The notes below the pieces were generated by a model. The model was not told the DNA's origin, did no database searches, and worked only from the letters and a program-made list of their open reading frames with translations. A stretch of 56,290 nt of DNA from contig QZLD01000267.1 in the NCBI GenBank assembly GCA_004796385.1, positions 1-56,290 on the forward strand, given 5' to 3'. Every line of letters starts with the position of its first letter. Position 1 is the first letter of the stretch. The DNA comes from Gammaproteobacteria bacterium. GTDB lineage: Bacteria > Pseudomonadota > Gammaproteobacteria > QZLD01. Made by a program: the position numbers and the translations under genes. Of this stretch, positions 13,214-47,988 are shown piece by piece.

Positions 13214-13903
13214 ATGAAAAGGTTTAGAGTTACAATAACTGCTGTCTGTTTATTGCTGTGCTATCTTGGTTATACAAAGATAAGTTTTTTCCTGAGAAAT
13301 CAGGAATTGCAACAAACTGCATTTAGTAGTGATGGCACAGATATCAAATGGGACAGAGAGTGGGTGCAGATAAAAGGGGGATATCTTTTACTTGAAGAGG
13401 CACTGCCGGATGATTTTGAAAACAGATTGAATCCGGATGCCATTATTATTCCTTTGGTAGCTAATGTTTCTGATGATGAATTTCAGGTGTTTGTAGAGAC
13501 TAAGGATAAAAAGCTTATTGAAAGATATAAAAACTACAGTGATTTTGGTTTTGTAGCTGAAAATGAGAGAGCTAAGTATATAGAAGCGAATCCGGATCTT
13601 TTTAAGATTAGAAAAGATATTAAAGGGATAATAAAGACCGGTTATGCGGGGGATAAAAATCTAAAAACTATAAAAGACGGAGCAAAAGAAGCTGGAATAA
13701 AATTAACAAAAGGCGCTTTTTTTATTGAGGAGACCGCTGAGCCACCATCTATTATAGGTGGCGTTTTTATGGTGGTAATTGCAATACTGGGCCTGATAAA
13801 AGTAATGTTTTTATGGAAGAAAGAGACTCCTGAAAAGGTTTCAGGAGAAGAGTCAGTGTCTGAAATTGATTCTTCTGGTAGTGATGAGGTTAAATCCGAG
13901 TAA
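13214..13903 (+). CDS. Hypothetical membrane-anchored protein
   Basis: 229 aa. It has an N-terminal hydrophobic segment (VTITAVCLLLCYLGY), a second one near the C-terminus (IIGGVFMVVIAILGLIKVMFLW) and an acidic Ser-rich tail. I recognise no family. Confidence 0.55.
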   Translation: MKRFRVTITAVCLLLCYLGYTKISFFLRNQELQQTAFSSDGTDIKWDREWVQIKGGYLLLEEALPDDFENRLNPDAIIIPLVANVSDDEFQVFVETKDKKLIERYKNYSDFGFVAENERAKYIEANPDLFKIRKDIKGIIKTGYAGDKNLKTIKDGAKEAGIKLTKGAFFIEETAEPPSIIGGVFMVVIAILGLIKVMFLWKKETPEKVSGEESVSEIDSSGSDEVKSE

Positions 13904-14783
13904 CCGAGACCAGTTTGTCTGTATATTCGGTTAATTTTGCAGTTTTGTCTCGGGCTTCCTGAAGAGAAATATTTGATGACTGGACGTCATCTCTCATTTT
14001 ATTAAAGGTTTCCAGCGAGTTTTGGCATGATGTCGTAATTTTAGAAGCGGCATCAGTGGCTTGATATGAATTTTGATTTATATTATTCATGGATTCTTCA
14101 AGGATATTAAAAATCTCATCGACATGTTTTTTGCATTGAGTGATGCTGTTTTTTTTGCTGTAACTTTCGATTTTTTCTGAAATGAGGACATCTGTGTCTT
14201 CTGTTAACCCTTTAAGGGTAGAGTCAATTTCGTATGTTGCTGAGCTGGTTTCCTGAGCCAGATTTTTGACCTCTTCCGCAACATTTGAAAAACCTGCTCC
14301 TTTTTCCCCAGCTCTTGCGGCTTCTATGGTGGCATTAAGCGCAAGAAGATTTGTCTGTTTTGCAATAATATGTATGCCGGATGATACTTTGCTTATGCGT
14401 TTTAATGTTTGTGCCAGATTGGTTAGATCATTTTCAATATCCGCAATGGCTTCAACCAGTTGTCGAACTGTATTTAATGATTCCTGTGCGGGGGCTTGTG
14501 ATTGGTGAATATCGTCAAGCGATTGATTAACGGCTGTTATTATTTCATCGTAGTGTTTTTTTACCTCTTCGTTATATCCATCCAGTTTGTGAGAGTTATC
14601 GCTTAGTTCATTAAAAAGAGAGGTTTCAAAAGAGACTTTTTGAGTATTTGCATCCAGGTGGTTATTGATCTGCTCAATATGTTTTCCGATGCCGTTTGAC
14701 CCGTTTTTGACCTGATTGATAGTTATCAGGTATTTATCTTCCAGCTCTTTTGCGGATATTTTATTTTTATTCTCTATTTTCAT
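13890..14783 (-). CDS. Soluble methyl-accepting chemotaxis protein consisting of little more than the signalling domain
   Basis: 297 aa with no hydrophobic segment. The MCP hairpin-tip signature is [38 protein letters not shown]. Confidence 0.85.
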   Translation of the reverse strand: MKIENKNKISAKELEDKYLITINQVKNGSNGIGKHIEQINNHLDANTQKVSFETSLFNELSDNSHKLDGYNEEVKKHYDEIITAVNQSLDDIHQSQAPAQESLNTVRQLVEAIADIENDLTNLAQTLKRISKVSSGIHIIAKQTNLLALNATIEAARAGEKGAGFSNVAEEVKNLAQETSSATYEIDSTLKGLTEDTDVLISEKIESYSKKNSITQCKKHVDEIFNILEESMNNINQNSYQATDAASKITTSCQNSLETFNKMRDDVQSSNISLQEARDKTAKLTEYTDKLVSVTRI

Positions 14784-14791
14784 TTTTTTCT

Positions 14792-16231
14792 CTAACTGGT
14801 GTAGTTGATTCTTGCCGCACCCCAGTGTTTACCGTTAATAAATATTGGAGCGGATACTTCTTTAACAAGAGCAAAGTTACCGCCACCAAGATCACGACGA
14901 TAAGTTTGTAGTAAGAACGGTTTTGTATTTTTGGCGGATTTTAGTCCTACTCTGTCATCGAATATTCTTCGATTGCGACAATTTGACATATTCCATTGCA
15001 CATCATTTGTCTGTGGTTGAGACACTGATTTCATATGTGTGCCAATGTAACCATTGATATCACAGCAGACACTGGCAACAATATTGGGTAGTTTTCTTGA
15101 TGCTTCTTCCTGAAAAGGTGGAAACAGTCTGTCTGTAAGGTCAACAAAAGAGGTAGAAAACTGTTCCGGATTTGTTTCAGGAATAGAATCGTAGGTAAAG
15201 TCGAACAGTTTTTCCTCAGAAATTTCACCTCGCGATATTGCTTCTGCAAGAGTCGATGATGCGTTTGAGGCCATTTCTTTGGCTAATTCAATATAAGGAG
15301 TGTCAACTGTTTCAACCCCTTCAACCGCCGTCATGGTAATTAATTCCTGCGAAAATTCCAGAAGGTTATTAAGTTTATCGCTGGTGGAATTAATGTTTTC
15401 ATCTGATTCACGTATGCTGTCGGAAAGGGTATTTAGTTGTGAAACGGTTTTGTTTATTGCTCTGTCGATAGATTTAACTGAGTTGTTTGAGTATTCGGCT
15501 AGAACTTTTAGTTTTTCCAGAGTATTTACTGCTTTTTCTGAGCTGGAGGGGATTATGTCTATGTTTTCGTTTACTTTTTCTGAGAGTCTGGAGCATTCTT
15601 CTCCTTTTTTTTGCAAACCAATTGTGACTTGTTTTAGTTCACTTAGGATTTTATCAATTTCCTGTGTAGAATCGCTTGCCTGTTTTGCCAGTGTCTTAAC
15701 TTCATTTGCAACTACAGCAAAACCTCTTCCAGACTCTCCTGCTCTTACAGCTTCAATAGTTGCATTTAAGGCCAGGAGATTTGTCTGTTTGGCGATAGTG
15801 CCGATTCTTTTAGCTACCTTTCTGACATTTGCCAGAGATATTGAGAAGTTGTCGAAATGGTTATTTATGGTTGTTGCAGTTTCTCCGAGAGTGAGCAGGC
15901 TGCGTACGGATTTGTCTATTTTTATACGGTTGGAGTGGGCAATAGTTTCGGCATTTTCTATTGCTTTATTAATATTTCCGGTGCACTGATCTATAGTGTG
16001 ATTATTTTGGTCAAGGGTTGATGCAGCAATTTGCAACTCTTTTGTAAGGTCTGATTCTCTGGATACTTTCTCTGCAACTTCATCAACGCAGCCGGCGATG
16101 TCGACCACCTGAATGCCCAAGTGTCCGGCTGTGACTGCCGCCTGATTTATGACTCTGCGAAGTTCTTCAACTCTGACGCTGTTGTATTGCGAATCTTTTT
16201 TATTTTCTTTTTTCATTAATGGTGGTGGCAT
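14792..16231 (-). CDS. Soluble methyl-accepting chemotaxis protein with a C-terminal ~170-aa sensor-like domain
   Basis: 479 aa with no TM segment. The MCP tip is [38 protein letters not shown]. The C-terminal domain contains [34 protein letters not shown] and [12 protein letters not shown]. Confidence 0.85.
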
Positions 16232-16252
16232 TAATAATTATCTCCATGTTAC

Positions 16253-17722
16253 TTAGTCATGAGTAACTTTTAAATCGTATGTTAATCTTAGTGCTCCCCA
16301 GTGTTTGCCATTAACATACAGTGGTACTGAACAGTCTTTAACCAGCGCATATTCTCCGTTACCAAGAGGTGCTCTGTATGTCTGTAGTAAAAATGGTTTT
16401 GTGTTTTTGGCAGCGGCTAAGCCCACAGGGTCATTGAACATCATGCGATAGCGACTGTTTGTCTTATTCCACTCAGGATCATTTGGCCTTTGGGGGTGTG
16501 ATCTGAAGTTCATGTGTCTTGGCATGTAACCGTTGATATCTACAGCTACGCAGGCTGTAACTCTGTCGTTTTCCAGTGCAGGTTCCTGAATTGGTGGAAG
16601 ATGTTTGTCGCAGAATTCAGCGTATCTGGTCATTAGCTGTTGTGGATCGGTATTAGGAATAGGTTCGTAGTTTTGATCAAACAGATCTTGTTCGGTAAGT
16701 GAGCCTTTCTGAATTGCTTCTTCAAATAGCGTTTCAATTTGCTTTGCTTTACTTTTTACCATATCTATCATTGGAGTATCTACTGTAACAACTCCGGGAA
16801 CAACCGTGTATCTGATTAGTTCTTCTGTCCATGTTCGTAGTGTTGCTGCACGATCTCTTGCTTTTGAAACGGTATTTCGGGCTTCCTCAACATCTGATGT
16901 CAGGTCATTGAGGCCCTCAACAGTTTTTTCACATTGTATATCGATCTCTTTAACCGCATGTACTATATCTGTTGATTCACTGTCAATATCGTGAACAGTG
17001 TTGCCGATAGATTCAATTACATCCTGAATTTGTTGAGTTCCTTTTCTTACTTCGTTGGCTGTTTCTTTGTTGGCATCGCCCTGAGAGATAAGTGCTTCGA
17101 TCTGGGTGCTGAGGGTTGATAGGGTAGAGCTGATCTGAATAGTTGAATCGCCGGTTTTCTTTGCCAGATTTTTGACTTCTTCAGCAACAACAGCAAAGCC
17201 TTTGCCGGATTCGCCAGCTCTGGCGGCTTCTATTGTTGCATTGAGAGCCAGAAGGTTAGTCTGTTTTGCAATAGAGCTAATGGTTATTGCAATTTTGCGG
17301 ACTTCTTTAAGGGCATTACTTAGCTCTGCCAGTTGGTCGGAGCTTTTTGTAACCGATTCAGTAAGAATCATAATGTCGCTTAAAGACGATTCGATTGTTA
17401 CTTTGGAATCTTCGATGCTGGTGTTGGCGGTGTTTGCCAGTTCTTTGGCGTTATTTACTGCAGAATCAACCTTTTTATTGTTCTGCATCAGGATATTTGA
17501 GATTTCCTGCAGTTGTTTGAACATCTCTGTTTCATGTTCAATTTTTGCGTTAAGAATATCTACCCGACCTGCAATATCTACAACTTCTGTTCCTAAGCTG
17601 CCAACGCTACCTGCAGTTTTTTGCAAGGCGGCCATAACAACATCAGGATCAAAATCTCTGCTGTTTTCTTCATTCTTTTCTTTGTTATTGGAAAAGAAAT
17701 TTTTAAAAAAAGATAATCCCAT
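16253..17722 (-). CDS. Soluble methyl-accepting chemotaxis protein, paralogue of 14792..16231 with the same C-terminal domain
   Basis: 489 aa with no TM segment. The MCP tip is [38 protein letters not shown]. The C-terminal domain shares [25 protein letters not shown] and [12 protein letters not shown] with its neighbour. Confidence 0.85.
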
Positions 17723-18049
17723 GTTTAAAGATCTTCTTCCTTATGTATGTTAAACAAAGTGTTTCTTATATCTTTGTATAGTTGATTATTGCAGAAATGT
17801 GTATTGCAACCGATTTTTTGAGAAGAAACCGTAATAAACTCTGCCAACCAACTCTCAGGTTTAAGTATAGAAGAAAAAAACAGAAATGAAATTTAAGATA
17901 AAAAATCTTTTTTTGCTATTGTTTGCTATTCTTAAATAGGTATAAAGATTCTGGTTGTTATTATGCTTAAATGGTGTTTTAGTTGGCTGACAGATTCGGA
18001 ATTTTTAAAGTAGAATTTACATAACATTTTTTAAAGGCAGATTTTTATT

Positions 18050-19702
18050 ATGGCCTCACCAGAGGGTGATAAAGATAAACTGAATAAGTTACGAAGTCGG
18101 TTTAAGGAAGAGTTGCCGGCAAAAATCGCAGATATTGAGTTTTGCTGGATCAATGTATTAAAAAACAATTCTAAAGAATCTCTGCATGCTATGTATCGCC
18201 TCGTTCATGATCTTTCTGCTTCCGGCGTTGCGCTGAAATATCCTCAGGTTAGTGAGCTTGCCAGAACAATTGATGTGGCTTTGCTTCCGGTTGTTGAGGG
18301 CGAAGAGCGTATTGGTGATGAGCTTAAAGACGTACTTGATGATTATCTTAAAGCGCTTTCCGACCTTGACCTTGATGATGATCCTGAAGTAGAGGTCGAA
18401 AGTTCTGATCAGTTGTTAGGTAGTGGTTATAAACTTCGAACTGAAGATTTTCTGGTTTACCTTTTAGAGGCTGATCGTGAGATATCTGAAGATATAGCAG
18501 ATCAGGTAAGCCATTTTGGTTACAGAGTTGAAATATTTCATTCATTCATTGATCTTTTTACCAGCCTTAGTGATGATCGTGCACCAGATGTTCTGGTTAT
18601 GTCGGTAAATATTCCCGGTGTGGAAATAACACCTGCTGAGGCTGCTGACCAGATAAGAAAAATAAGTTATAACGATCTTCCTGTAGTATTTCTTTCCGAT
18701 AATGATGATATTGAGCATCGTTTGATGGCGGCCAGATCAGGTGCGGATGCCTATTTTGTAAAGCCTATTGATGTACATGAAATGATAGATCAGCTTGATA
18801 AGCTTACCGGTGAAGAAAAGGTTGATCCGTTGCACATAGTTATCGTAGAAGATAGCGCTACCCAGTCACTATATTACTCTTCAATTCTGGAAAGGGCAGG
18901 AATGGAGACCAGTGTTATCAATGATCCTCTGGAGATTCTCACAGTTATGGAAGAGGTCTCGGCAGATATGATCCTGATGGATATGTATATGCCGAAATGC
19001 AGCGGTATGGAGTTGGCAAAGGTAATCAGGCAGTTTCCGGCCTATGCCAGTATTCCGATAGTTTTTCTTTCAGCAGAGACTCAAATAGAGCGGCAACTGG
19101 ATGCAATGAGTCTTGGTGGTGATGATTTTTTGACCAAGCCAATCAATCCTCCTCATCTTATTCGTTCGGTTGCCATAAGGGCTGAAAGAGCCAGAATACT
19201 TAGAACATTTATGATAACTGATAATCTTACAGGGCTTTTAAATCATACGAGAATAAAAGAACAGTTGATGCACGAAGTATCCAGAGCTGGACGTAAAAAA
19301 GGTGTTATGACCTTTGCAATGATAGATATAGATCACTTCAAAAATGTTAATGATACCCATGGGCATCATGTCGGTGACAGGGTAATAAAAAGTCTTGCTC
19401 GGGTTCTTCAGCAAAGATTGCGTCGCTCCGATTATATTGGTCGATATGGTGGTGAGGAATTTGCGGTTGTATTGCCGGATGCCGATGCAGAACTTGCGAC
19501 AAGAGTTCTTGATGAGATCAGAAAGAACTTCGGAGGTATCAGGCAACACTCTCCCAAAGGAGATTTTGCAGTTACATTCAGTGGAGGAATTGCAACTTTT
19601 CCTGAGTGTAAAGATGCTACTGAGCTTGCTCTTGAGGCCGATAAAGCTCTTTATGTGGCAAAAGAAAGAGGCAGAAACTGCATAGTTAAATTCAGTAAAT
19701 AA
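18050..19702 (+). CDS. Hpt - degenerate receiver - receiver - GGDEF diguanylate cyclase
   Basis: 550 aa. It has an N-terminal Hpt-like helix with His (LVHDLSASG). The first REC-like domain has Ser where the phospho-Asp belongs (PDVLVMSVNIPG). The second REC is canonical (IVEDS, ILMDMYMP, FLSAE, TKP). The GGDEF domain carries RYGGEEF and an RxxD I-site (RRSD) five residues upstream. Confidence 0.85.
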   Translation: MASPEGDKDKLNKLRSRFKEELPAKIADIEFCWINVLKNNSKESLHAMYRLVHDLSASGVALKYPQVSELARTIDVALLPVVEGEERIGDELKDVLDDYLKALSDLDLDDDPEVEVESSDQLLGSGYKLRTEDFLVYLLEADREISEDIADQVSHFGYRVEIFHSFIDLFTSLSDDRAPDVLVMSVNIPGVEITPAEAADQIRKISYNDLPVVFLSDNDDIEHRLMAARSGADAYFVKPIDVHEMIDQLDKLTGEEKVDPLHIVIVEDSATQSLYYSSILERAGMETSVINDPLEILTVMEEVSADMILMDMYMPKCSGMELAKVIRQFPAYASIPIVFLSAETQIERQLDAMSLGGDDFLTKPINPPHLIRSVAIRAERARILRTFMITDNLTGLLNHTRIKEQLMHEVSRAGRKKGVMTFAMIDIDHFKNVNDTHGHHVGDRVIKSLARVLQQRLRRSDYIGRYGGEEFAVVLPDADAELATRVLDEIRKNFGGIRQHSPKGDFAVTFSGGIATFPECKDATELALEADKALYVAKERGRNCIVKFSK

Positions 19703-19722: not shown

Positions 19723-20262
19723 ATGGCTGAATATGTTTTTAAAGGATATATGTGTCAGGGTATTCACCTTGTAGATGGTGGTTATATAGGAGTAATGTCC
19801 TGGGATGTGGATAAAACCAAGTCGCATATATTTGAATTATGGTATTTTGATGGCAAAGGTACCAGGAATTGTCTCTATTCTTCTGAACCGGCTAAAGAGA
19901 TAATATTGCCTCATTATAATTTTGATGATTATCATGAAGCTGAATTTTCAGAAAAATGGATAACCGATAATTTGCTTGAAATAACGGTTATCGGTAAAAA
20001 AGATAAAATTTCAATAAAAATAGAGGCGGAAGAGTGGCATTTATGGGGAAAGGCCACAATAGAAGGGGTAACTGAAAATAAATATCGCTATACGCATGAA
20101 CCGGAGCAGATGGCATTTTGTCGGTCTGTAGAGATAGTCATTAATGGCAAAGCAGTAGAAGTGCAGAATGATCAAAGTGAGATATTATTTGTAGGTACTG
20201 CTCCAATGCCGAATAAACCTCTTCTGACAAAATGTATCAGAAGAGTTTATCCTCCCGAGTAG
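19723..20262 (+). CDS. Hypothetical protein, probably co-transcribed with the GGDEF gene
   Basis: 179 aa starting 20 nt after the GGDEF stop on the same strand. No TM segment and no motif that I recognise. Confidence 0.5.
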   Translation: MAEYVFKGYMCQGIHLVDGGYIGVMSWDVDKTKSHIFELWYFDGKGTRNCLYSSEPAKEIILPHYNFDDYHEAEFSEKWITDNLLEITVIGKKDKISIKIEAEEWHLWGKATIEGVTENKYRYTHEPEQMAFCRSVEIVINGKAVEVQNDQSEILFVGTAPMPNKPLLTKCIRRVYPPE

Positions 20263-43159: not shown

Positions 43160-43276
43160 AGCTATTTCACCTATTAAGATTGAAAAACCGGAATTGTCGG
43201 ATAGACTTAAAATGAGATGCGAGATTAGGAATATTCGTAATGTTTGAAGATTACCAAGTCAAGATCGGAGGTTGCC

Positions 43277-43663
43277 TTGGATAAGAATATGCAAATCCTG
43301 ATAGTGGATGATTTTTCCACCATGAGAAGAATAATCAAGAACCTGCTAAGGGATCTTGGGTTTACTAATACCCATGAGGCGGATGATGGTACCTCTGCGC
43401 TGCCGATGTTGCAGAAGGGAGGTTTCGATTTTCTGGTAACAGACTGGAATATGCCGGGAATGACCGGTATAGATTTGCTTAAGGCGGTGAGGTCTGACCC
43501 GGGGCTCTCTTCTCTTCCTGTTCTTATGGTGACAGCCGAGGCAAAGAGAGATCAAATCGTAGAGGCGGCGCAGGCTGGGGTTAATGGTTATATTGTGAAA
43601 CCATTTACTGCAGTAACACTGCAGGAGAAGATAGAAAAGATCTTCGAAAGAATAGATGCCTGA
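43277..43663 (+). CDS. cheY: Chemotaxis response regulator CheY
   Basis: The sequence reads (L/M)[30 protein letters not shown]...DWNMPGMTG...VTAEA...KPF. The TTG at 43277, with GGAG 6 nt upstream, matches the usual MDKNM N-terminus. The ATG at 43289 is an alternative start. Confidence 0.92.
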
Positions 43664-43735
43664 GTATATTTCGAAAGAAAAGAATAGAAGCCTGAGTATA
43701 TTAAAACAAAACTAAGAAATTAATTAGGAAGAGTA

Positions 43736-44506
43736 ATGCTGGAAAAGAATCGGAAACATTATCTTAGTGAGGCGCAGAGGCTTATTCAGTGTATTGAGGA
43801 CGGAGATATAAGCAGTGCAGATCAGATTATTGACAGCATGACCAAATTGAGGGAAAGCGAACTGTTTAAGGAGTTGGGGACTCTCACCAGAGATTTGCAT
43901 GACACCATTAAAAATTTTGGTGTAAGTGATATGGATATCGATCTGAAAGAGCTTACAGAGGTTCAGATACCGGATGCTACAGAGAGAATAAACTACGTTA
44001 TTGAGACAACCGAAAAGGCAGCAAACCGCACACTGGAAGCAGTGGAGCAGGGGCTTCCTTTAGCAATTGATATTTCTGACCGGGCAAATTACTTGCAGGA
44101 TCGTTGGGAAAAGTTCAAAAGCAGAGATTTGACTGTTGATCAGTTCAGAGAGCTGAGTCAGGAGCTTGAATCGTATCTTTTAGATACGGTATCGAATGGA
44201 GAGGCTTTAAGAGAAAAAATGAACGAAGCGCTTATGGCGCAGGAGTTTCAGGATATAACCGGGCAGATACTCAGAAAAGTAATCGAGATGGTGCAGCATG
44301 TAGAAGAGAGTCTGGTATATCTGGTAAAAATGTCTGCAGGAGCAACCGATCTTGAAAGACCGAAAAGGCCGGTATCACTTTCTGCAAAAACTTCTAAAAG
44401 TGATGACGAGCTTGATGGGCCAGTGGTTCCTGGAACCAGTACCGCAAATAATGTAGTAAATGGTCAGGACGAAGTAGATGATTTACTTTCCAGTTTAGGA
44501 TTCTAA
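43736..44506 (+). CDS. cheZ: CheY-P phosphatase CheZ
   Basis: 256 aa with the catalytic region AQEFQDITGQILRKVI and a C-terminal CheY-binding tail (DEVDDLLSSLGF). Confidence 0.9.
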   Translation: MLEKNRKHYLSEAQRLIQCIEDGDISSADQIIDSMTKLRESELFKELGTLTRDLHDTIKNFGVSDMDIDLKELTEVQIPDATERINYVIETTEKAANRTLEAVEQGLPLAIDISDRANYLQDRWEKFKSRDLTVDQFRELSQELESYLLDTVSNGEALREKMNEALMAQEFQDITGQILRKVIEMVQHVEESLVYLVKMSAGATDLERPKRPVSLSAKTSKSDDELDGPVVPGTSTANNVVNGQDEVDDLLSSLGF

Positions 44507-44516
44507 GGATAGTTCT

Positions 44517-46844
44517 ATGGCGATAGATACAGAAGACGAGATTGTTCAGGATTTTCTGGTTGAATCGAGAGAGATTTTAGAAAGTCTTAGTGAGCAGTTG
44601 GTTGGATTAGAGCAGTGTCCGGATGATACTGAGCTTCTTAACGCAGTATTTCGCGGATTTCATACAATTAAAGGCGGAGCCGGATTTCTTAACCTTGAGA
44701 GCCTGGTTGAGGTTTGCCATATAACTGAAGACCTTTTTAACCTGCTAAGGCAGGGTGACCTTAAAGTGACCCCCGTTCTCATGGATGTGGTTTTGCAGGC
44801 ACTTGATGTGGTAAACGATATGTTTGGCACTATTGAAACCGGAGTTATGCCGGATTCAGCCCCAAGGGATCTGATATCCAAGCTGGAGCAGCTAAGGGAT
44901 GGCAAGCAAGAGCTGAGTGATGAGTCTACTTCTGGGGCAGCCTCATCAGGAGATATTACAGACAATGAATTTGAAGAGATGCTGGGTAATCTTGATGCGG
45001 ATACTAATGAATCAGCAGAGGTTGAAAGTACAGGTTCAGATATAAGCGATGATGAATTTGAAAATATTTTATCGCAGGTGAGTTCAGGAGGAGGTGAAAG
45101 TGATTCTCAAGGTTCAGCTGATAATGAACCTGAATTGTTTACCAATGAACCAGAGGTTAAACCGGAACCTGAAAAAGTATCTCAGAGTAGTTCTGGCGGT
45201 GGAGATAAGATAACAGATGATGAATTTGAAAATCTTCTTGATCAGCTGCATGGTAAAGGAAATGGACCTTCAGTAGGTGAGGTTTCTCCCGCACCTCCTT
45301 CAGCTCCAGCTGCCACATCTGTTTCAAAAGAGCCTGAACCTCCTAAGATTGGAGGTGGTGATAAAATTACAGATGATGAATTTGAAAATCTGCTTGATGA
45401 AATGCACGGTAAAGGCGCAGGGCCAACAAGCAAAAAGCAAAAGCCTGTGCCCAAATCACCTATAGAAGAACCTATTATGCAAAAGCCAGCAGAGCCCGCT
45501 GCGTCTGATGTACCGAAAGCAGCATCTTCAAAGCCGAATGCTGCACCTGTTAAAGCAGGGGCAGAGAAGGCAGGTGGAGTAAAGGCTGAGACAACAGTCA
45601 GAGTAGATACAGCAAGGCTTGATGATATTATGAATCTGGTTGGGGAGTTGGTGCTGGTAAGAAACAGGCTGACGACTATCAGAGGCTCATTTGAGGATGA
45701 AAACCTGAATTCTGCTGTATCCGATCTGGAGCTGGTTACCTCTGACCTGCAGGCAGCGGTAATGAAAACCAGAATGCAGCCTATTAAGAAAGTATTTGGC
45801 AGATTTCCCAGAGTGGTTAGAGATTTGGCCAGAAGTCTCAATAAAGAGATTGAGCTTGAACTTAGAGGTGAAGAGACTGATCTGGATAAGAATCTGGTAG
45901 AAGCTCTTGCAGATCCATTAGTGCACCTTGTTAGAAATTCAGTGGATCATGGAATAGAAGCACCCGAAGACAGGCTTATGGCTGGAAAGTCGAGAAACGG
46001 AAAGATCATACTTGGTGCGGAGCAGGAGGGCGATCATATATTGCTAACTATCGCAGATGATGGCGGCGGTATGGATCCTAATATGTTGCGTAAAAAAGTT
46101 ATAGAAAAAGGGCTTATGGACTCAGAGTCTGCAGCCAGGCTGGATGATAAAGACTGCTTTAACCTTATATTTTTACCTGGCTTCTCAACCAAAGCGGAAA
46201 TATCAGATATCTCAGGTCGTGGTGTAGGGATGGATGTGGTAAAAACCAGAATATCCCAGCTGAACGGATCTATTGATATTGACTCAGAACTTGGTGAAGG
46301 AACAACTATTAGCATAAAAGTTCCATTAACACTGGCAATTTTGCCGACTCTAATGGTTACACTTTGCGATAGAAAATTTGCAATTCCCATGTCTGTAGTA
46401 CGGGAGATATTTGAGCTGGATCCGGACAAAACAAATGTTGTAGATGGTCAGCTTGTAGTAATGGTAAGAGACAAAGCAATGCCTATCTTCTTCCTGGAAA
46501 AATGGCTCCTGAATATGCCAGGCGCAGATATTCTTAACAGAAATACTGTTAAGGAAAAAGATGCTTCAGTTCAGAAAGAGCAGGAAGAATCAATGGGACT
46601 ACTTGATGATTTTGAAATGGAAGGTGAAGATGAACGTCAGGTTGTAACAGTTGTTATTGGCAATATGATGGTCGGTTTTGTTGTGGATGAAGTTATTGGT
46701 CTTGAAGAAGTTGTGATTAAGCCTCTGGGCGCGATGCTGCAGGGACTAGCAGGGCTAGCTGGTTCTACTATTACAGGTGATGGACGTATTGCACTGATAG
46801 TTGATATCCCAAGTCTTATAAAAGAATATGGTAATAGTATGTAG
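44517..46844 (+). CDS. cheA: Chemotaxis histidine kinase CheA
   Basis: 775 aa. P1 carries FRGFHTIKGGAGFL, followed by a long low-complexity linker. P3/P4 motifs are HLVRNSVDHGIE, DDGGGMD and GRGVGMDVV. P5 is CheW-like. Confidence 0.93.
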   Translation: MAIDTEDEIVQDFLVESREILESLSEQLVGLEQCPDDTELLNAVFRGFHTIKGGAGFLNLESLVEVCHITEDLFNLLRQGDLKVTPVLMDVVLQALDVVNDMFGTIETGVMPDSAPRDLISKLEQLRDGKQELSDESTSGAASSGDITDNEFEEMLGNLDADTNESAEVESTGSDISDDEFENILSQVSSGGGESDSQGSADNEPELFTNEPEVKPEPEKVSQSSSGGGDKITDDEFENLLDQLHGKGNGPSVGEVSPAPPSAPAATSVSKEPEPPKIGGGDKITDDEFENLLDEMHGKGAGPTSKKQKPVPKSPIEEPIMQKPAEPAASDVPKAASSKPNAAPVKAGAEKAGGVKAETTVRVDTARLDDIMNLVGELVLVRNRLTTIRGSFEDENLNSAVSDLELVTSDLQAAVMKTRMQPIKKVFGRFPRVVRDLARSLNKEIELELRGEETDLDKNLVEALADPLVHLVRNSVDHGIEAPEDRLMAGKSRNGKIILGAEQEGDHILLTIADDGGGMDPNMLRKKVIEKGLMDSESAARLDDKDCFNLIFLPGFSTKAEISDISGRGVGMDVVKTRISQLNGSIDIDSELGEGTTISIKVPLTLAILPTLMVTLCDRKFAIPMSVVREIFELDPDKTNVVDGQLVVMVRDKAMPIFFLEKWLLNMPGADILNRNTVKEKDASVQKEQEESMGLLDDFEMEGEDERQVVTVVIGNMMVGFVVDEVIGLEEVVIKPLGAMLQGLAGLAGSTITGDGRIALIVDIPSLIKEYGNSM

Positions 46845-46920
46845 TTTCTGACTTAAGTGACTATTCAGAATACCCAAATCCACACTCCCATAGTGGTTTA
46901 ATGTGATTAAAGGGGGAAAC

Positions 46921-47988
46921 GTGACAATAAAAGTATTAGTGGTTGATGACTCAGGCTTTTTCAGAAGAAGAATAAAAACTGTATTAGAGCAGGATTCTGA
47001 GATCAAGGTGATTGGAGAGGCTGCCAATGGTGAAGAGGCTGTGGCAAAGGTAAAAGAGTTGCGTCCGGATGTGGTCTCTATGGATGTGCAGATGCCTGTA
47101 ATGGATGGCATTACAGCTGTAAGAGAGATAATGAAAAGCCAACCAACACCATGTTTAATGTTTTCAACTTTGACGTACGAAGGGGCTCAGGCAACACTGG
47201 ATGCTCTTGAGGCAGGAGCAGTCGATTTTCTGCCGAAGAAGTTTGAAGATATCAATAAAGACACGGAAGAGGGTGGTAAGGTACTTCAGGAAAGGGTTAA
47301 GATTATAGGAAAAAGAGGGTTGCGCCTTGCTCATAACCGTACTAAAGATCACGTTGTTGCAGATAGCAAAAAAGTAGCGGCAACAACACATTCGACCAAA
47401 GAGTCTGCAACAGTAAAATTAAACAGATACAATCTTGTAATAATAGGCACATCTACAGGCGGCCCGGTGGCTCTGCAAAAGGTGCTTACATCTCTGCCAT
47501 CCTCCATACCCTGCCCCATAGTTCTGGTGCAACATATGCCGCCTAAATTTACCACTGCCTTTGCTGAGAGAATGAACACTTTGTGTCGAATTGAGGTTAA
47601 AGAAGCAGCAGATGGAGATGTTTTAAAACCGGGAGTTGCGTTTCTTGCTCCGGGCGGAAGACAGCTAGGCTTAAAAAAAGCCGGAGCAGATATGGTTGTA
47701 GAGATATTTGATGCCGGGCCGGAACAAATATACAAGCCATGTGTGGATACCTCTTTTGAAGCAGCGGCAGATGTTTGTCCAGGAAAAACATTGGGTATTA
47801 TACTTACCGGAATGGGACGTGATGGCGCCAAAGGTGCAAAAAAACTTAAAAGTACGGGTGCAACCATCTGGGCACAGGATGAAGAGAGTAGTCTTATTTA
47901 CGGAATGCCTGCTGCTGTAGCTAAGTTGGGACTTGCAGATAAAATTCTTGGGCTTGATGCAATAGCAAATGATCTGGCCAGAGGCTAA
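46921..47988 (+). CDS. cheB: Chemotaxis methylesterase/deamidase CheB
   Basis: The N-terminus is VTIKVLVVDDSGFFRR.. from the GTG at 46921, preceded by AGGGGG. It has a receiver domain plus an esterase domain (IGTSTGGP, HMPP.FT, TGMG.DGA). Confidence 0.9.
   Translation: MTIKVLVVDDSGFFRRRIKTVLEQDSEIKVIGEAANGEEAVAKVKELRPDVVSMDVQMPVMDGITAVREIMKSQPTPCLMFSTLTYEGAQATLDALEAGAVDFLPKKFEDINKDTEEGGKVLQERVKIIGKRGLRLAHNRTKDHVVADSKKVAATTHSTKESATVKLNRYNLVIIGTSTGGPVALQKVLTSLPSSIPCPIVLVQHMPPKFTTAFAERMNTLCRIEVKEAADGDVLKPGVAFLAPGGRQLGLKKAGADMVVEIFDAGPEQIYKPCVDTSFEAAADVCPGKTLGIILTGMGRDGAKGAKKLKSTGATIWAQDEESSLIYGMPAAVAKLGLADKILGLDAIANDLARG

Follow-up and report, generated by a model that had tools for sequence, protein, structure and literature searches.

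The window analysed here, a stretch of 56,290 nucleotides covering positions 1 to 56,290 of contig QZLD01000267.1 in the gammaproteobacterial metagenome-assembled genome (MAG) GCA_004796385.1, encodes three consecutive soluble methyl-accepting chemotaxis proteins (MCPs) of 489, 479 and 297 aa, the two longer of which carry a conserved C-terminal module behind the signalling hairpin. On balance, the three genes probably constitute an operon of soluble receptors of heptad class 40H, two of them equipped with a C-terminal Cache sensor that would respond to a small ligand and signal to the flagellar, F6-type CheA. What makes these receptors noteworthy is the size of the family that they represent, the restriction of the module to MCPs, its unusual conservation and the existence of relatives carrying one copy in the periplasm and another in the cytoplasm.

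Three soluble chemoreceptors in a putative operon

The three open reading frames (ORFs), which coincide exactly with the minus-strand genes delineated in an earlier sequence-only reading of this DNA, and the parts of the encoded proteins are arranged as follows:

16253-17722, minus strand: gene 1, 489-aa soluble MCP of class 40H ending in a Cache-like module (ORF; PF00015, E 6e-28)
16805-17647, minus strand: signalling hairpin of gene 1, residues 26-306, tip at E171, ~20 heptads per arm (continuous helix in the AlphaFold2 (AF2) model; alignment with Tsr)
16778-16804, minus strand: conserved linker of gene 1, residues 307-315, VPGVVTVDT, non-helical (AF2 model; alignments)
16256-16777, minus strand: C-terminal single-Cache-like module of gene 1, residues 316-489 (AF2; Foldseek; weak dCache_1 match)
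14792-16231, minus strand: gene 2, 479-aa soluble 40H MCP, paralogue of gene 1 (42% identity) that likewise ends in the module
14795-15301, minus strand: Cache-like module of gene 2, approximately residues 311-479 (retains all family-invariant Cache residues)
13890-14783, minus strand: gene 3, 297-aa bare 40H signalling hairpin, tip at E160, without the Cache module (PF00015, E 7e-29)
13827-13847, minus strand: terminator-like hairpin ~40 nt downstream of gene 3, likely the end of the operon (pattern scan)

Given that the intergenic gaps within the cluster measure 21 and 8 nt and that a terminator-like hairpin follows the last stop codon, a single operon is the simplest reading of the three genes. 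All three products match the MCPsignal family (PF00015) with 94-101 bits against a cutoff of 34.6 (E 1e-26 to 7e-29) and display the MCP tip signature in the alignment, whereas none has a HAMP match in Pfam. The highest Kyte-Doolittle value over 19-residue windows is 1.43 in the three proteins versus 2.64 for the transmembrane (TM) helix of a neighbouring 229-aa protein, and since no window exceeds the former value, the receptors are soluble. Thus, their description as chemoreceptors devoid of hydrophobic segments and HAMP domains, initially made from the letters of the sequence, holds. In the alignment, the soluble set lacks EE/QE pairs at the positions where TM 40H receptors carry them, and the three window proteins may be unmethylated; a strict motif search for methylation sites also missed those of several TM receptors.

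The C-terminal module adopts a Cache-like fold

Along their entire length, the two longer receptors (479 and 489 aa) share 42% identity, and the ~170-aa C-terminal domain that they had been proposed to share is recovered by profile matches at nt 14798-15340 and 16271-16816, respectively; in what follows, the module denotes the last ~175 residues of these two proteins. No Pfam or NCBIfam model scores above threshold on the module. When the C-terminal region was compared on its own to Pfam at E <= 10, the only match was a weak one to dCache_1, with 14.5 bits (E 0.026) versus a gathering score of 45, and CZB gave no match. Searches of PDB sequences, whether with a single protein or with a profile, returned no match below E = 1.

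An AF2 model of the module, built on an alignment of 29 sequences, has a mean predicted local distance difference test score (pLDDT) of 91.9 and a predicted template modelling score (pTM) of 0.87, and comprises a long N-terminal helix (residues 17-40 of the model) followed by an alpha/beta core with strands at 89-96, 146-155, 158-171 and 174-183. The seven Foldseek matches in the PDB at E <= 1e-3 are all to WalK/YycG, TlpC or other Cache-type sensor domains, and the next ones are to Tlp3, CitA, KinD and DctB, with probabilities of 0.98-1.00 for WalK, TlpC, Tlp3, CitA and KinD. The modelled module thus has the structural hallmarks of the Cache superfamily, namely, a long N-terminal helix and, behind it, an alpha/beta core resembling that of PAS domains and built around a central antiparallel sheet. 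The extracytoplasmic location between two TM helices is not found in the window proteins and is seen solely for the N-terminal copy of the module in relatives of the P0009 type (see below). We conclude that the C-terminal domain, as modelled, is a divergent single-Cache (PDC-fold) module. The likeness of the G.HWGA.R block to PAS/Cache sensor cores, which had been noted from the sequence, is accordingly borne out by the predicted fold, the Foldseek matches and the homology to the periplasmic sensor copy in TM MCPs.

Invariant or near-invariant polar residues of the module (numbering of the 489-aa protein) include D395, Y399, H403, S408, Q411, D415, W418, N419, R424, R426 and D431, as well as Q447, Y449, R450, D463, S465, H474, W475 and R479. 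They are densest in the segment of ~50 residues between strands 2 and 3, and in known Cache domains the segment between these strands forms the ligand pocket. The abundance of arginine and histidine (and aspartate) among the conserved residues suggests an anion or a metal ion as a candidate ligand.

The signalling hairpins belong to class 40H

The heptad class of the receptors was assessed in a MAFFT alignment of all 14 MCPs of the MAG with Escherichia coli Tsr, the reference for class 36H. Tsr and the receptors encoded on contigs C61 and C141 share symmetric 14-residue deletions (36H), whereas the two receptors on contig C115 have deletions of ~21 residues (34H). Full-length hairpins, with two heptads per arm more than in Tsr, are present in the three window proteins, in their paralogues on contigs C131 and C213 and in five TM receptors. 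By this count, the three window proteins are of class 40H. In the C-terminal arm, too, the lengths agree, with 138-141 residues in the five TM 40H receptors and 137 in the 297-aa protein.

The AF2 model of the full-length 489-aa protein (pLDDT 86) contains one hairpin, residues 26-306, with arms of ~145 and ~135 residues, which is followed by the non-helical linker 307-315 and then by the N-terminal helix of the Cache module. The consensus of the linker across the family alignments is G-[VI]-E-T-x-D-T-P. In both the 479- and 489-aa proteins, the module begins exactly where ordinary 40H receptors end. The two proteins had been described as inverted, with the signalling domain first and the sensor-like domain last. 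This is correct for the order in the sequence but not for the arrangement in space: because the MCP hairpin folds back on itself, the C-terminal module comes to lie at the tip-distal end, in the position of an N-terminal sensor. The soluble set shares tip variants (IAKQT.., NAT and EVK) that differ from those of the TM 40H receptors.

The bare 297-aa protein and further paralogues

The whole of the 297-aa protein can be aligned to the N-terminal ~300 residues of the Cache-bearing MCPs (~30% identity), and its C-terminal arm ends like that of an ordinary 40H receptor. In a maximum likelihood tree of the signalling modules, the TM 40H receptors are separated from the soluble family with support of 100/100, and the 297-aa protein, together with its orthologue from a sister genome (100/98), is nested inside the Cache-bearing clade. 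This position suggests that the 297-aa protein probably lost the Cache module, which is the most parsimonious scenario. Alignment, arm length and tree therefore all agree with the view that the shortest protein is essentially a bare signalling domain.

One more soluble 40H MCP, which has 52% identity to the paralogue on contig C131, is encoded at C213:38015-38791, where the contig ends after 259 aa of the protein. This gene probably represents another Cache-bearing paralogue, in which case the MAG would have at least five genes of this receptor family. Several Azospirillum spp. encode an MCP of ~350 aa directly downstream of the Cache-MCP (L010:8732-9793, L019:8751-9794 and L020:8744-9793). 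With its tip only ~50 residues from the N-terminus, this MCP seems to be truncated at the N-terminal end, and it is not orthologous to the 297-aa protein.

A large chemoreceptor family with a conserved C-terminal module

Homology searches with the C-terminal domain retrieved 1,432 proteins from Alpha-, Beta- and Gammaproteobacteria, mostly of 450-500 aa and with the same layout of signalling domain followed by the module. A profile search against 1.84 billion representative proteins yielded 2,570 clusters, defined at 50% identity, with E <= 1e-3, including 1,231 with E <= 1e-30. With more than 1,400 homologues and ~2,570 such clusters, chance is an implausible explanation for the module behind the MCP hairpin. 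Members of the family are found in Azospirillum, Rhizobium, Burkholderia/Ralstonia, Magnetospirillum, Geobacteraceae and the family of the MAG itself. Among the matches listed, the module is nearly always at the extreme C-terminus, and the longer architectures that were checked are all chemoreceptors, such as dCache_1-HAMP-MCP-module and a 1,089-aa protein with both N- and C-terminal copies of the module. In the full-text literature searched, the coverage of which is incomplete, we came across no report of chemoreceptors that end in a cytoplasmic Cache module.

Three unusual architectures were encountered in the group comprising P0174 (710 aa), P0139 (580 aa) and P0235 (763 aa). P0174 is an MCP-PilZ-Cache protein and thus combines a cyclic di-GMP (c-di-GMP) input with the Cache module; another architecture, Diacid_rec-MCP-Cache, places cytoplasmic sensors at both ends; and in one protein, two matched MCPsignal stretches precede the module.

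The spacing between the hairpin tip and the HWG motif of the module is 303-306 residues in 145 of the 163 soluble members. Class 38H had been expected for the alphaproteobacterial members, and this assignment was dropped in view of the constant tip-to-HWG distance. Among 32 diverse members, the mean pairwise identity is 0.60 for the tip, 0.57 for the Cache core, 0.44 for the linker and 0.21-0.23 for the helical arms. In chemoreceptors, it is usually the sensor domain that varies most, and a Cache core as conserved as the tip is unusual, which points to one conserved ligand or partner. The MCP-only architectures, the fixed spacing to the tip and the conservation of the core indicate a tight functional coupling between the module and the receptor.

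Evidence for a sensor role of the module comes from TM MCPs of ~744 aa of the Geobacteraceae type, in which it is found twice, in the periplasm and at the cytoplasmic C-terminus. In P0009 (748 aa, from a metagenome), the two copies occupy residues 36-210 and 574-748 and are 75% identical to each other, and the N-terminal one lies between TM1 and TM2, the canonical position of a periplasmic sensor. Another such protein, P0015, is encoded at L087:8001-10235. The double-copy type has more than 1,185 members, those with a name being from Geobacteraceae, Desulfuromonadales and one Verrucomicrobiae MAG. The periplasmic copy in these relatives matches sCache_3_2 (PF17203) marginally and through its last strands only (26.8-29.1 bits versus 28.4), and the C-terminal copy yields a marginal match to PocR. 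Such receptors may compare the concentration of one ligand inside and outside of the cell.

CheA systems of the MAG and the likely signalling partner

Four CheA genes were identified in the MAG. One of them is part of the chemotaxis cluster located within the window:

43244-47988, plus strand: cheY-cheZ-cheA-cheB after flhF-flhG-fliA, F6-type flagellar core, presumed signalling partner (Pfam)

The order flhF-flhG-fliA-cheY-cheZ-cheA-cheB is that of F6 systems. The distance between this cluster and the receptor genes, first put at ~15 kb, is in fact 25.5 kb, as cheY starts at 43244. The second system, on contig C61, consists of CheY-CheA-CheW-CheW and a 36H MCP, and the third, on contig C115, combines two 34H MCPs with CheW-CheA-CheR and is F8-like. 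The fourth, on contig C223, includes a multi-Hpt CheA-REC hybrid, CheB and a small CheW-like gene; the corresponding cluster of the sister genome G001 encodes a CheA of ~1,982 aa along with its own, PilJ-like MCP. We considered the C223 hybrid as a Wsp-type kinase that could feed the GGDEF protein encoded next to the receptors and rejected this possibility, since the multi-Hpt CheA, CheB, the CheW-like gene and the MCP-associated ~1,982-aa orthologue in G001 identify the system as Pil-Chp. In the MAG, this Pil-Chp-type cluster (C223:1-9478) is directly followed by genes for a glycosyltransferase and a Wzx-like flippase, an arrangement that may point to a connection of the pilus chemosensory system with polysaccharide export genes.

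Receptors of class 40H pair with F6 and those of class 34H with F8 systems, and WspA and PilJ are also of class 40H (PMC11253619). Given the 40H class of the soluble set and the fact that the other three CheA systems have receptors of their own, the F6 flagellar CheA/CheW is most likely its partner, so that, of the two outputs initially envisaged for the receptors, the flagellar CheA is the one favoured by the heptad class and the Che inventory.

Conservation of the receptor operon and its synteny with the GGDEF gene

The region upstream of the receptor operon contains the following features:

17723-18049, no strand assigned: divergent intergenic region of 327 bp between gene 1 and the GGDEF gene (sequence inspection)
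18050-19702, plus strand: divergent neighbour, (Hpt)-REC-REC-GGDEF (Pfam)

The divergently transcribed neighbour had been read as an Hpt-REC-REC-GGDEF protein, and Pfam recovers its REC-REC-GGDEF part, with a sub-threshold match for Hpt (E 0.008). A sigma-70-like site is present in the intergenic region on the plus strand (17987-18016), in a scan that did not exceed shuffled expectation, and inspection of the 327 bp by eye revealed no sigma-28 consensus upstream of gene 1.

To assess the conservation of this arrangement, 41 related genomes were surveyed, including the four genomes of a sister genus from the family of the MAG. The module is found in all four own-family genomes, with 4-6 copies in each, and in just one of 36 other families of the class, in a single copy. 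The same block, inclusive of the divergent GGDEF gene, is present in all four sister genomes, where the identity to the window proteins is 76-77% for the GGDEF protein, 77-81% for the 489-aa receptor, 46-49% for the 479-aa one and 36-39% for the 297-aa one. The sister blocks contain a fourth Cache-MCP gene, the product of which is 68-74% identical to its orthologue on contig C131, where this gene resides in the MAG. As a side observation, comparison of the sister loci L088-L091 with window positions 13890-16231 shows that, within this five-gene block, the 479- and 297-aa orthologues diverge far faster than the products of the flanking 489-aa, C131-like and GGDEF genes; all are intact ORFs in the five genomes.

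Farther afield, the context is different. A relative with 64% identity is a solitary gene among flavodoxin-like genes, without a GGDEF gene. Across 80 diverse genomes, from Azospirillum, Rhizobium, Devosia, Burkholderia, Ralstonia, Magnetospirillum and others, the architecture of the receptor is constant, whereas a GGDEF gene is located within 8 kb at just two of the 80 loci, another MCP gene is nearby at ~15 and any che gene at three. When the neighbours encoded within 4.5 kb at these 80 loci were clustered, no informative family recurred: apart from other MCPs and histidine kinases of a generic kind, there were only genes with lineage-specific synteny, for example that for a CDF transporter in Azospirillum, and none gave a clue to the ligand. 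Hence, the co-conservation of the three receptor genes and the GGDEF gene is real in the sister genus and breaks down in distant genomes; from the gene neighbourhoods compared, the GGDEF link is a matter of synteny at the level of a bacterial family rather than a property of the receptor family. The companion proposal that the receptors feed the neighbouring c-di-GMP enzyme draws on the synteny in this one family and is unsupported as a general property.

Proposed mechanism and alternative explanations

Under the reading that we favour, the module would bind one small, widely available ligand in the cytoplasm, and the linker would relay binding to the C-terminal helix of the four-helix bundle, modulating CheA at the tip, ~20 nm away, in parallel to the C-terminal CZB domain of TlpD. 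The 297-aa protein may act as a non-sensing array partner, and the entire receptor set would most likely take part in arrays with the flagellar F6 CheA/CheW. A role in cytoplasmic sensing is reasonable because of the Cache fold and the homology to the periplasmic sensor copy, and so is, on the same grounds, the original suggestion that these receptors respond to an intracellular cue.

Several observations weigh against this scenario. No Cache model of Pfam reaches its cutoff on the window proteins, and the TM-scores of the Foldseek matches are modest (0.27-0.56), which is consistent with a divergent member of the Cache superfamily. The conservation of the core is high for a ligand sensor and could instead reflect a conserved protein partner. 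In canonical Cache domains, the signal exits through the C-terminal helix into TM2 (PMC4822843); the module of the window proteins ends the polypeptide and could not use this exit, the route via the N-terminal linker being our proposal. As for the partner, class 40H is not exclusive to F6, given WspA and PilJ, no che genes adjoin the receptor operon, and the MAG is fragmented and 85% complete. The distinct tip variants of the soluble set make a separate cytoplasmic array or partner possible.

Some of the same evidence could be accommodated if the C-terminal module served protein interaction, assembly or localisation instead of ligand sensing, that is, if it joined the tip-distal ends of soluble receptors, as in cytoplasmic arrays of the sandwich type, or docked the receptors to a partner. 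Domain shuffling normally places generic sensors on kinases and cyclases as well, whereas the module resides on MCPs only, in every architecture examined, and a Cache core as conserved as the kinase-control tip would fit a conserved protein partner. Furthermore, in cytoplasmic arrays, contacts at the tip-distal end have to substitute for the membrane (PMC3964821), and the C-terminus of TlpD is required for polar localisation (PMC13001251). However, the same module occupies the periplasmic ligand-binding position of more than 1,000 TM MCPs, where a role in array assembly makes little sense, the fold and the nearest structures are all those of small-molecule sensors, and conservation is densest in the very segment that corresponds to the ligand pocket of known Cache domains, so that we regard an assembly module as unlikely. 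A different departure from the sensing of a free metabolite would be a bound cofactor or metal, by which the module would report redox state, gas or metal availability in a manner resembling energy taxis. H403, H474, D395, D415, D431 and D463 of the 489-aa protein could form a metal site, module copies on both sides of the membrane, as in the Geobacteraceae-type MCPs, would be well matched to a metal ion or to a signal that crosses the membrane, and TlpD, the closest architectural precedent, uses a Zn site. Yet there is no conserved cysteine or CxxCH motif (the cysteine of NCRNRR is serine in the 489-aa protein), neither sequence nor fold matches heme-, flavin- or CZB-type domains, and the four invariant arginines fit an anionic organic or inorganic ligand better. 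We consider this explanation very improbable.

The gene neighbourhood raises the further question of whether the receptor operon functions as one unit with the divergent Hpt-REC-REC-GGDEF gene, in which the receptors would control c-di-GMP synthesis via a CheA-type kinase, instead of or besides flagellar rotation. Chemosensory systems with REC-GGDEF outputs exist, Wsp being an example. The divergent arrangement is kept in all four sister genomes, with the GGDEF protein at 76-77% identity, direct adjacency to one of the 25 GGDEF genes in 2.77 Mb would arise by chance in ~2% of cases, and some members of the family, such as P0174, have PilZ, a domain that binds c-di-GMP, between the MCP and Cache parts. 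Nonetheless, common descent may be all that lies behind the synteny of two close genera, and the association is lost outside of one bacterial family (two of 80 loci within 8 kb, and none in the 64%-identity relative). Moreover, the genome has no Wsp-like kinase, the C223 hybrid CheA being that of a Pil-Chp cluster with its own receptor, and the window proteins are devoid of a PilZ domain. Such a unit therefore seems quite unlikely, and signalling of a small-ligand sensor to the F6 CheA remains the reading that we prefer. A more far-reaching version of this reading, which we put forward as a doubtful possibility, is that the MCP-only Cache-like module represents an undescribed, very large sensor family for one universal small ligand or ion and provides the main cytoplasmic input for metabolism-linked taxis in the soluble 40H receptors of Proteobacteria, with dimers of the double-copy receptors comparing the ligand outside versus inside by sending the two signals into opposite arms of the hairpin.

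Comparison with known receptors

MCPs with a sensor placed after the signalling domain are known, for instance, TlpD with its CZB domain (PMC6715182) and Tlp1 with PilZ (PMC3604760). Helicobacter pylori TlpD resembles the window proteins in being soluble, with the hairpin first and the sensor at the extreme C-terminus, at the tip-distal end, from where the signal would have to pass via the C-terminal helix (PMC6715182; preprint PMC12871147). However, the CZB domain of TlpD is a four-helix Zn site, whereas the module described here has an alpha/beta Cache fold. Azospirillum brasilense Tlp1 likewise has a second input domain after the MCP signalling domain (PMC3604760), and the MCP-PilZ-Cache members of the present family combine both inputs. 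Unlike the window proteins, which lack PilZ, Tlp1 is a transmembrane receptor and binds c-di-GMP through its C-terminal domain.

Cache is the commonest superfamily of extracellular sensors. With WalK/YycG, CitA/DcuS (sCache_3_2) and KinD, the module shares the fold, consisting of a long N-terminal helix and a PAS-like core. It differs from these extracytoplasmic sCache sensors in being cytoplasmic and terminal, without flanking TM helices, and in the highly conserved insert of ~50 residues between strands 2 and 3.

The state of annotation of such receptors is illustrated by MtpA of Methylobacterium aquaticum, a cytosolic alphaproteobacterial MCP involved in formaldehyde taxis, for which Pfam finds MCPsignal only and 'no hint for ligand' (PMC10613068); the present family is in the same state of annotation, and MtpA might be one of its members. 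Approximately one quarter of cytoplasmic chemoreceptors have been reported to lack an identifiable sensor domain (Collins et al. 2014, as cited in PMC10613068). The present results show that a sizeable group of such "MCPsignal-only" proteins possesses a well-folded, highly conserved sensor of the Cache type that is missed by the Pfam and NCBIfam models searched, and the definition of this family would improve the annotation of ~2,570 protein clusters at 50% identity. The family would also offer a second model, besides TlpD, for a C-terminal sensor that drives a chemoreceptor hairpin, and knowledge of the ligand would show whether metabolism-dependent taxis in bacteria relies on a single conserved cue from inside the cell.

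Other genes flanking the receptor operon

Directly downstream of the GGDEF gene, a gene for a 179-aa protein without Pfam matches is located at 19723-20262 on the plus strand; it has no counterpart beside the GGDEF gene in the four sister genomes. On the other side, convergent on the MCP operon, a plus-strand gene at 13214-13903 encodes the 229-aa protein mentioned above, which has hydrophobic N- and C-terminal segments and no Pfam match. Its 3' end overlaps the gene for the 297-aa receptor by 14 nt, and the terminator-like hairpin of the operon lies inside its coding sequence.

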